A DNA stretch of 64,000 nucleotides from Desulfatiglandales bacterium. GTDB taxonomy: Bacteria > Desulfobacterota > DSM-4660 > Desulfatiglandales > Desulfatiglandaceae. Position 1 is the first letter of the stretch. Each line of letters begins with the position of its first letter. A model generated the notes under the pieces. That model was not told the origin of the DNA. It saw only the letters and a program-made list of their open reading frames with translations, and searched no databases. The DNA lies in the NCBI GenBank assembly GCA_963662465.1, contig OY759599.1, forward strand, positions 7,552,001-7,616,000, read 5' to 3'. Of this stretch, positions 14,358 to 16,880 are shown one piece after another. The position numbers and the translations under genes were made by a program.

Positions 14358-14469
14358 GGTTTTATTTGGTATCCTTTTTGCTGTTACTCCCCGAAAAGGG
14401 TCGAATCCAGTGATCATCACATGTGATTTTGTGAAGGATCTTGGCCGGTGAACCCGCGGCCAGTACGCT

Positions 14470-16362
14470 TTTGCCATCAAAAACGTTAGAAAAATTTACG
14501 TTTTTTAACTTTCATGAAATCATTGCAAGCTCCTGAGTTAACAGCCCTAATCCTTTATTGAGGAGTGAGTAAGCAGCTTCAATTTGAGATGGTTGCTCGG
14601 CACCCTTGATAGGTTGCTTTTTGATAACCCCTGAAATCATTGGGTTTTTGAAATGGAGTTCAGAGCAAATTGAGAGCCATAGCCATTTCCAGCCTGTGTC
14701 CGTAACCCTATAGAATGACATGCTATTCTTCTTTTCGACAATTCCCCGGACCCTCAATTTGTTCATTTCATACCGGATTTGTGCAGGATTTCGAAAAGAT
14801 TGGGGGAGGCTGTTGAGAAGATCCACTGTTCTGAAGCCATATGCATGGTATTTTGGCTTTAGAAGCTCTTGGGCCAGGGCGGTCTGACGATCTTTTCTGA
14901 AGTCCGGTGGGGTCACGTTGTGGCCAAGATGATCTGAGACAGGCCTTTTGTAACGCTCCTCTTCGCCTTCTGAAATAGAGGCGATATCCACATCGGCACA
15001 GCATTCCAAGAATCGATCATTACATTCCACACCTTCCCAAAGATAGGCCTGTAGATAGAGGACAGGCTTTTTAAGCCCCAGCGATTTGGGGTTATTGATG
15101 GTGGTCTCGGTGCGGATGTAGTACCCGGTCTTATTGTACTGCTTGATGGAGTTGCCTCGGAACCAGTGTTTGATGCACGCATTATTGTCATATAGCCGCC
15201 AGAAGGTCTTGGATGTTGATCGGCGATGGAGCCGACGATTGAAAATCTGAGCAATGGTCTCGGGCAATCCGAGACGGTGGAATTTATCCAAGAGCCTTTC
15301 AAAGAGGCTGGTGCAAAAACGTGCGGAACGAAACACAATATTAGAAGAGACTTCGACCTGGCTTGAATACCAGTCGTGATAAAGAAATTTGGATCGTGTC
15401 GAATATTTTCCTTTGTCGAATTTGAAGAAAATATTCATCCAGTAGTTGATCCTGTTAAGTACAGCTCTGCCAGTGAGAGACGCAGCGGCTTTTTGAAGGG
15501 CCTCTGGATTTTCAACGTCAACAAATGCGTTTTCGTTTAGCCTGTATTTGATGCCTTGTTTATCGAGCTGGAGTTGAATGGCATTGTGGCCGTTGAAATA
15601 GAATTCTGCACGAAAAGGAAGGTAGGAAGAGATTTTGAGGTAGCAGAGACCACCGAGAAGGGCATCGTGCAAGTAGATGTAATACTGCTTCACCGGCTTT
15701 CTGCAGTCATAGATTCGTTCATAGGGCTTTCCGGCTTTTGAAGTGAGTTGCCTGCAGGCAAATGTTCTAACTGGTTCTTTGTCCGTAAGGATGCAAAACA
15801 CATGGTTCCCTTTTCCTGTAAAGGCCTTGGCGTATTTTTGTTCCACGAATTTTGACTTTGCGCCGTCAGTGCCACCCCCTTCAGAGGGCCACCAGTGAAT
15901 GGGGATATTGTTGTTCCGGGCTACCTTTTGAATATGACCATTGAGTTGGTCGGTTAGAATCCTCATTACACCGTTTGACAACCCTTTGAATCCGAGAGCC
16001 CTGAGGAGCCTGACAATGCCTGCTGGAGAAAAGAGGGAGAGAATGTAGCCTCGAATAATAACCCGATCGAAGCAGAAATATTTGAACTTGATATTTTCTG
16101 AGAATTGATTCAAAAATGAATTCTTCATGGGTGTATCCTCCGGTGAGGGAATGTTAGCTAAACAATCCATACCGGATCACCCATGAAATTTCAAATCAAA
16201 GAATGGGATTTTAGGCAGGGGGTTAAGAGACTTCAGGATGGTCAGATGACGCCAAAAGCTTCATCAACTTTAATATCCGGGATTTGCCCCGGCCAAAAAT
16301 ATAACCATCATGTCATTAGCCCCCTGCCTACAGCCCTTTTCGGAACTTTAGTTTGGTAACTT
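14470..16362 (-). mobile_element. 1.9-kb insertion element without terminal inverted repeats
   Basis: Removing it exactly restores the acyltransferase frame at this point. Single ORF, visibly lower GC than its flanks, subterminal hairpins. Confidence 0.85.
14512..16128 (-). CDS. Putative transposase of uncharacterised family (538 aa, C-terminal winged helix)
   Basis: Only long ORF of the element. Motifs CFDRVIIRGY, FYFNGH, IKQYNK..IRTETTINNP, RYEMNKLR..GIVEK..YRVT; SD GGAGG. Confidence 0.7.
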   Translation of the reverse strand: MKNSFLNQFSENIKFKYFCFDRVIIRGYILSLFSPAGIVRLLRALGFKGLSNGVMRILTDQLNGHIQKVARNNNIPIHWWPSEGGGTDGAKSKFVEQKYAKAFTGKGNHVFCILTDKEPVRTFACRQLTSKAGKPYERIYDCRKPVKQYYIYLHDALLGGLCYLKISSYLPFRAEFYFNGHNAIQLQLDKQGIKYRLNENAFVDVENPEALQKAAASLTGRAVLNRINYWMNIFFKFDKGKYSTRSKFLYHDWYSSQVEVSSNIVFRSARFCTSLFERLLDKFHRLGLPETIAQIFNRRLHRRSTSKTFWRLYDNNACIKHWFRGNSIKQYNKTGYYIRTETTINNPKSLGLKKPVLYLQAYLWEGVECNDRFLECCADVDIASISEGEEERYKRPVSDHLGHNVTPPDFRKDRQTALAQELLKPKYHAYGFRTVDLLNSLPQSFRNPAQIRYEMNKLRVRGIVEKKNSMSFYRVTDTGWKWLWLSICSELHFKNPMISGVIKKQPIKGAEQPSQIEAAYSLLNKGLGLLTQELAMIS

Positions 16363-16880
16363 TTCGGGAATATCGTGGGTGACAAGTGAACCCGCGCCGA
16401 TCACCGAATGATCCCCGATGGTGACGCCCGGCGCGATCATGGCCTGGGAGGCAATCCAGACGTTGTTTCCGATTCGAATGGGCCCCACATGCGTCGCCCC
16501 CCCCCTGCTCCACCGGATGGAACGCGGTGTCCAGAATGGTCACCCAGTCTCCAATGGCGCAGTGCCGGCCGATTTCGATGGATTCCACGGCACAGATGTT
16601 GGCGCCGTCATTCAGGGCCGTGCAGTCACCAATGGACAGAATCGCATCAGGGTTGAAAACCGTGATGTGGCTTCGGACTCTCACCCCCATGAAATTGACG
16701 TCCCTGCCGAGTTTTAGTTTTCCATTGAGTTCGAAGATGGGAAAGAGTCCCGAAAAGGTGGGACGATTCACATACTCGACGTCACACCGGTAAAACTTTC
16801 GTCGTTTATATGCGTGCTCTAACAGAGAAATGAGATGGATCACCACTTCCTCCCATGTTCAACCCGGGAAACCGGAGCAT

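Follow-up and report, generated by a model that had tools for sequence, protein, structure and literature searches.

A bacterial insertion element without terminal inverted repeats or target duplication, probably moved by a Rep_trans-like tyrosine nickase

The window, a 64,000-nucleotide stretch of a Desulfatiglandales genome (contig OY759599.1, positions 7,552,001 to 7,616,000), carries an insertion element of 1893 bp on its minus strand (14467..16359). Read in the orientation of its ORF, the element begins TTACC and ends AAAAGC; its limits follow from an empty-site joint and from alignments of the ends, and it has neither terminal inverted repeats nor a target duplication. Its only long ORF (14512..16128, minus strand) encodes a 538-aa protein, a putative transposase. 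Compared with the relative L002, this ORF differs at 55, 31 and 200 first, second and third codon positions (159 synonymous and 77 non-synonymous codons), and on this comparison it is under purifying selection. The element abuts the 5' part of the gene that it interrupts (16360..16846, minus strand), which we label a hexapeptide-repeat acyltransferase from its repeat pattern, its match to the Hexapep profile being weak (E 0.25).

The empty site was found in run X19, where one contig joins position 14466 straight to 16360 with the 1893 bases absent. No ambiguous letters at this joint fit both sides. X19 contigs are identical to the flanks of the window over 867 and 841 bases, and the contig with the empty joint has a depth of 42.9, compared with 38.8 for the flank. 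The insertion site is polymorphic in near-identical DNA, and the insertion is therefore recent. A break in an X19 contig at 14466 hints that the filled allele is present there too, and X19 may be the sample from which the assembly came. Loose ends belonging to other copies were seen at 14467 (three contigs in X19, two in X22) and at 16359 (three contigs in X22, one in X1); run X21 covered the stretch in pieces that yielded no joint. A search for an orthologous empty site in relatives found none of 40 genomes that matched the flank.

These joints bear out the precise insertion proposed in a preliminary description of this DNA, and they move its limits, given there as 14470-16362, by 3 nt with the length unchanged. 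The same description had placed both junctions in TTTT runs with a duplication of 0-3 bp; the joint is exact, with no duplication. It had also held that deletion of the element restores the acyltransferase reading DIPE joined to SVLAAGSPAK. With limits of 14467-16359, the empty site therefore encodes PE-K-VLA and not PE-S-VLA, and removal of the element does not restore the acyltransferase because a C9 run at 16497-16505 (nine G on the coding strand) already shifts the frame upstream, in the filled and empty alleles alike. The empty-allele contig has no gap at this run, which is possibly a slippage tract.

The two ends are not inverted repeats, as had been proposed. The best local score for a terminal inverted repeat was 5, and 489 of 500 shuffles equalled or beat it. 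The element instead has a conserved 5' terminal motif (16342..16359, minus strand), whose first three bases mimic an NTA target. That target is here a GTA in host DNA just past the 3' end (14464..14466, minus strand), which is present as a single copy and stands in the empty allele too. To define the ends we collected 29 5' junctions and the same number of 3' ends, all of them distinct, from 40 related loci, further loci and the window's own genome, and left out six 3' ends that had no terminal AGC, leaving 23. These junctions are not fully independent, with several coming from one genome; a junction contig and an end repeat are counted among the 3' ends, and a remnant that may not belong to the family among the 5' junctions. 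At the 5' end the sequence is N-T-A: T and A occupy positions 2 and 3 in all 29 junctions, and position 1 is T in 24 and another base in 5/29. After the 3' end, position +1 is free (A 10, T 8, C 3, G 2; n = 23), followed by T at +2 in 22/23, A at +3 in 21/23 and C at +5 in 13/23. The left flank prefers A at -5 (20/29), A at -4 (17/29) and T at -1 (18/29), and the bias on both sides is significant relative to flank composition (p from 3e-11 to 6e-4). Insertion thus occurs 5' of NTA, and the target consensus, AAWWT^NTAWC, resembles the junction formed when the element's own ends are joined, AAAGC^TTACC.

We submitted 15 loci to a duplication test, and in 11 of them both ends were readable. Repeats from flank to flank measured 0 nt in seven of these copies, 1 nt in three and 2 nt in one. 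At the position of the element's initial T the empty site has G, which excludes a duplication of TA; duplication of NTA is excluded likewise, the two N bases being unlike in 8/11 two-ended copies. Copy c3 in the window's genome follows the same G-to-T rule: two paralogous empty repeats read GT^GTA, and the copy reads GT^TTACC. Other copies, examined for terminal inverted repeats and for target duplications of fixed length, carried neither. Three copies have short tandem repeats at their 3' ends: a 22-nt repeat that begins at an internal TTAC in L023 (near 2503), and CTAG-CTAC units in two Rhodococcus copies, L051 (near 3180) and L057 (near 2575).

A distant clade, 22-26% identical and found on plasmids of Burkholderia and Rhodococcus, comprises 1.8-kb elements that start with CTA and are followed by CTAG after their end. 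No clean empty site was found in this clade, L053 fitting only the 5' flank. The flanks of its members are often the ends of IS701, IS5 or IS630. The Rhodococcus copies L051, L056 and L058 adjoin IS701, IS5 and IS630 ends at CTAG, several types of element reusing the same word.

Two structured regions lie inside the element. A subterminal inverted repeat (14479..14506), 12 nt inside the 3' end, is conserved in the 29 distinct 3' ends and is a candidate transposase binding site. We call it from conservation because the window copy does not exceed shuffles in folding energy. Counted from the 3' end, its centre is at about 26 nt, on the downstream side of the presumed nick on the strand opposite the ORF. 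The 5' leader contains a covarying three-way-junction fold (16212..16330; z -3.6). In a set of 19 sequences, 15 of its 28 pairs show compensatory change; none of 500 shuffles scored as high, and slid controls were lower. A comparison of the two strands gave p about 0.4, favouring neither, and the folded molecule may be RNA or single-stranded DNA. The fold has no match in Rfam, is missing in the relatives L014 and L015, and may serve as a terminator, a single-strand origin or a small RNA. Promoter and terminator scans gave results at chance level.

The window's genome (G000) contains three more copies, broken but with intact 5' ends, in addition to remnants; long pieces are 92-99% identical, and all end-bearing copies lie on one strand. 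Copy c2 (G000:C1:7291104) has retained its 5' end but breaks off at an internal GTGC, with ATA coming next, in the manner of a premature 3' end, and an internal deletion in copy c3 ends within a few bases of this stop. Another genome, G334, has copies in both orientations on one contig. Four copies with the same orientation lie within 25 kb there (G334:C1:1160676-1185705), suggesting local hopping or a preferred region. Two contigs that are circular by terminal overlap, L012 (1887 bp) and L110 (1981 bp), carry the junction AAAGC-TTACC, and L110 is longer by about 95 bases, the first of which form another 5' end; this fits read-through of the 5' end. These contigs, from which strandedness is not readable, may represent circles or collapsed head-to-tail copies; tandem copies may arise because the 5' end is itself a good target.

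Relatives of the protein fall into 1904 clusters at 50% identity (E up to 0.001), and database records call them 'hypothetical protein'. We found the family in 18 of 301 genomes of the phylum and in 16 plasmid records from Actinomycetota and Betaproteobacteria, where it lies inside large plasmids. None of 50,697 phage records contained it; three motif matches in viral contigs had no transposase and were discarded. The element is real and active, and belongs to a large family without a name.

The 538-aa protein had no match in Pfam, NCBIfam, PHROGs or the sequences of the PDB. No transposase model matched any of 42 family members searched against Pfam, or the query and 41 relatives searched against NCBIfam, which agrees with the early impression of a single ORF with no DDE, HUH or recombinase signature. 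The 41 distant relatives gave weak winged-helix or helix-turn-helix matches and stray profile matches, one of them above the cut-off. Neither the query nor the 41 relatives matched the Rep_trans profile (PF02486), DUF7845 was likewise without a match in the query or relatives, and hhalign against 50 Rep_trans proteins gave a probability of 1.8% in the wrong register. The profile comparison with Rep_trans that the preliminary description had proposed as a check thus came out negative. The ESM Atlas offered unnamed clusters for the whole protein and none that was usable for residues 235-385.

The full-length model was predicted with a pLDDT of 89, and Foldseek found no match to it in the PDB at E 0.001 or better. 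Because a wide search with this model was filled by winged-helix matches, we refolded residues 1-385 (14974..16128, minus strand) alone. The resulting model (pLDDT 92, pTM 0.90) has a TBP-like saddle and forms a putative Rep_trans-type nickase domain. TBP itself was the top fold match (Z 8.3-8.6 over about 178 residues). The next whole-domain matches were the Rep_trans initiators RepDE (4cwc, Z 6.5, 180 residues aligned, rmsd 5.1; 4cwe, Z 6.7) and RepSTK1 (4cij, Z 6.0-6.4), with alignments to the Rep proteins spanning 177-187 residues. These Z scores of 6-7 with an rmsd of about 5 are middling, within the range that the tool calls common, and a phosphoglucomutase domain also reached Z 6.7, over 97 residues. 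No RNase H or HUH proteins were among the structure matches listed; where the preliminary description had suggested looking for an RNase H DDE fold, the model showed the TBP-like fold that aligns with RepDE and RepSTK1. Matches to viral models in Foldseek included A0A345MNV4 and A0A2N9QVX7, of which the accessible part of the study on Rep-Arvir calls the first a Rep_trans protein from an inovirus and the second a viral TBP, both on the route that led to Rep-Arvir (PMC13107129). Residues 383-506 (14611..14982, minus strand) are predicted to form a winged helix of the MarR/PadR/HxlR type (Z up to 10.0, rmsd 3.3 over 90 residues), as had been anticipated for the C terminus.

We counted residue conservation over 99 aligned proteins. 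The best conserved positions include K329-x-Y331-x-K333 followed by R339-x-E341 (15106..15144, minus strand), a candidate catalytic tyrosine and third metal ligand: K329 is present in 97/99, Y331 in 98/99, K333 in 97/99, and R339 and E341 in 99/99 each. The two motifs sit on predicted strands 326-333 and 337-344, which places Y331 on a beta strand. Further upstream, Q257-x-E259 (15352..15360, minus strand; Q in 98/99 and E in 97/99, on strand 252-266) is a candidate counterpart of the Rep_trans RxD motif, and D21-R22 (16063..16068, minus strand; 97/99 each) of motif N' with RepD D46. The RepDE alignment begins at residue 14 of the model, equivalent to 39 of the chain, an offset that would put D21 on D46 if ungapped. 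A Rep_trans site, as set out in the available excerpts of PMC5714925, consists of the N' Asp, RxD, T/SxY/ExG, YxKxxE with its tyrosine on a strand, and W/LxRxE. D21, QxE, KxYxK and RxE occur in this order in 97-99 of the 99 proteins, and we infer their equivalence to Rep_trans residues from motif order and from where the structural alignment begins. The proposal that IKQYNK and IRTE are a YxK and RxE pair agrees with these motifs, with D21 and E259 as probable further members. Motif II (T/SxYxG) is absent, positions 318-325 not being conserved as such, as is the Glu of motif III (YxKxxE), and motif I is present as QxE and not RxD. There is a second invariant set, E118, Y150, Y152, D155, N179, H181 and N200 (96-99/99), which adds two more conserved tyrosines. 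An HUH motif is not conserved: one His column reaches at least 80% conservation, and HxH occurs in 13/99.

Several known systems resemble parts of this element. The Rep_trans superfamily (PF02486; RepC and RepD of pT181 and pC221, RepDE 4CWC, RepSTK1 4CIJ and the MOBT relaxases), whose members are described in the accessible text of PMC5714925 as initiators of replication and conjugative transfer, has in common with it the TBP-like sheet, a tyrosine on a strand in K/R-x-Y-x-K, an RxE downstream and an N-terminal Asp. For origins of the pT181 type, the portion of PMC4797284 available to us puts the middle of the binding site 23 bp downstream of the nick, and the inverted repeat here likewise lies a short way inside the presumed nick. 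The protein differs from Rep_trans in that it has no match at the sequence level, QxE for RxD, no motif II, a winged-helix tail, and about 200 additional residues that have an invariant set of their own; moreover, its gene sits in an inserted element and not in a replicon or oriT. Rep-Arvir proteins (RepSNJ2, DUF7845), from archaeal viruses and plasmids, combine a TBP-fold Rep_trans-like domain with a MarR-like winged helix, show the same pattern of Foldseek matches and have a D/E..D/E..Y..E layout. The excerpts of PMC13107129 report that the tyrosine and two acidic residues are essential in Rep-Arvir and that it, too, has a MarR-like domain. In contrast to the protein studied here, which has a bacterial insertion context and no DUF7845 match, Rep-Arvir is an archaeal replication initiator with KHYYM where ours has KQYNK, and the elements that carry it integrate through a separate integrase.

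The ends and target have the layout of the IS91 family (IS91, IS801, IS1294) and ISCR, which have no terminal inverted repeats, no duplication, a short oriented target by the transposase-downstream end, a target-like word at the start of the other end, subterminal palindromes and joined-end circles, to which the two circular contigs may correspond. For IS91, the parts of 10.1101/2025.01.24.634351 that we had describe a target beside oriIS, a target-like word at terIS, the absence of inverted repeats and duplication, and integration of bottom-strand circles. However, IS91 TnpA is an HUH enzyme with its tyrosine (Y1/Y2) on a helix, whereas HUH is not conserved here, and its target is GTTC/CTTG where ours is NTA. 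IS200/IS605, Helitrons and Replitrons similarly move as single strands through a tyrosine, usually without duplication and with hairpins near their ends. As far as the available text of PMC10288648 goes, these and IS91/ISCR make up four groups of single-strand transposons, all of them HUH; IS200/IS605, Helitrons and Replitrons also differ from the present element in size, fold and domain content, and the element has no helicase or TnpB. DDE insertion sequences (IS630, IS5, IS701 and others) have inverted repeats and a fixed duplication, and this element has neither. Strand-biased circularizing elements were set aside, as those need tyrosine recombinases according to the accessible part of PMC10782965.

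The element inserts precisely and without duplication at an oriented NTA, has fixed, non-inverted ends whose junction occurs in DNA, and carries one conserved protein. Catalysis by this 538-aa protein is our inference from structure and comparison. We consider it likely that the element is an autonomous insertion sequence moved, by way of a circle, by a tyrosine nickase of the Rep_trans superfamily with a TBP fold and no HUH motif. The transposon class with a Tyr nickase that was first suggested from the YNK tyrosine is thus supported by the predicted structure and by comparison, with middling Z scores and a negative profile-profile result for Rep_trans. The winged helix would bind the inverted repeat near the 3' end, and Y331, together with a metal that D21, E259 and E341 coordinate, would cut one strand at one end and stay bound to the 5' phosphate. 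This strand would next leave by displacement or peeling, and after a cut at its other end it would be closed into a circle. A host site that resembles the junction would then be cut by the same enzyme, which would join the strand in, and replication would fix the insertion. With a polarity of the IS91 type, the 3' end would be the starting point, on the strand opposite the ORF, and the 5' end the stopping point, with the donor kept. Within the nickase reading we think this the somewhat likelier of two versions; copy c2, with its kept 5' end and its stop at an internal GTGC before ATA, points against a start at the 3' end.

The same enzyme could act by peel-and-paste in the style of IS200/IS605, with single-stranded DNA excised at forks, the donor resealed without a scar and no displacement synthesis. 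Such a route accounts for the lack of a helicase gene and of a duplication, for structured ends and for a short oriented target, and precise excision would also leave an exact empty site. The layout of end and target, however, is that of IS91; on a single contig of G334 copies are found in both orientations, the presence of many copies per genome fits copy-out, and Rep_trans enzymes are replication initiators. We regard peel-and-paste as unlikely. A different possibility concerns the chemistry: the TBP-like saddle might mainly bind DNA, and the cluster formed by E118, Y150, Y152, D155, N179, H181 and N200 might catalyse another reaction or belong to a two-site enzyme. This cluster is as conserved as the Rep-like set (96-99/99), about 180 of 385 residues align to RepDE, and TBP is the top fold match. 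Against this, there is no reason why a TBP should retain D, QxE, KxYxK and RxE in the order of Rep_trans, and Rep-Arvir gave the same pattern of matches and proved to depend on its tyrosine, as the excerpts of PMC13107129 relate; catalysis by the second cluster seems to us quite improbable.

Two further explanations concern what kind of element this is. Distinct chromosomal and plasmid sites by the dozen, several of them per genome, would be hard to reconcile with a small rolling-circle replicon, a cryptic plasmid or satellite, that integrates occasionally through its Rep at origin-like sites. The matches also lie inside large plasmids, the phage records had none, and many copies are decayed, as is seen with insertion sequences. 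A Rep-like protein, the two circular contigs (1887 and 1981 bp), a leader whose structure might serve as a single-strand origin and a target that resembles the junction would fit such a replicon, which we nevertheless hold to be very unlikely. It is more far-fetched still that this is an already classified group, such as an ISNCY entry or a DDE family that targets TA or CTAG, which the profile libraries missed. The target contains TA, or CTAG in the distant clade, and could be mistaken for a duplication of TA or CTA, but the empty site has G where a TA duplication needs T, there are no terminal inverted repeats, no transposase model matches, and relatives are recorded as 'hypothetical protein'.

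The element most likely represents a new class of tyrosine transposase, in a comparison that took in Pfam, NCBIfam, PHROGs and the literature, without ISfinder. No Rep_trans-fold transposase was described among the entries listed by the full-text literature searches, which covered few subscription papers. With slightly less assurance than for the nickase itself, we think it likely that the family is a large class of prokaryotic single-strand transposons spanning several phyla, invisible to profiles and equipped with a TBP-fold, non-HUH tyrosine transposase. Rolling-circle transposition would then have arisen a second time, independently, from the Rep_trans branch of initiators, with scarless insertion at a short site that mimics the circle junction and a leader that may be a terminator, an origin or a small RNA. 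If true, a Rep_trans-fold transposase would be a new catalytic class among transposases and would explain about 1900 protein clusters that are now called hypothetical. Insertion sequence finders that work with profiles do not see such elements, which nevertheless disrupt genes and vary between near-identical strains. Should termination be leaky in the way it is for IS91, neighbouring genes could be moved, and a scarless integrator of 1.9 kb may be a useful tool. The exact ends, the target consensus, the empty site and the candidate catalytic residues make the idea directly testable.

Several copies are associated with other sequences. In the window's genome, copy c1 is split by a 6.5-kb insert (G000:C1:7334432-7340957) that has terminal inverted repeats of 16 bp and a duplication of 9 bp. 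Copy c3 (G000:C1:7007708) adjoins a gene on its truncated 3' side, with 5 nt of microhomology at the break; from a motif in its translation, we take this gene to encode a PIN-domain protein of the VapC type. At G000:C1:3958025 and one more site, a motif like the 5' end starts with CTAT, has near-identical left flanks and is accompanied by no transposase match, and these are a different element or chance. L050 (1-3153) holds two divergent family members in tandem on a Mycobacterium plasmid with four matching places. Palindromic units of about 100 nt, whose ends read CCTGCCCGC..GCGGG and which look like a miniature element, interrupt many relatives (L006, L024, L026, L027, L037 and L076).
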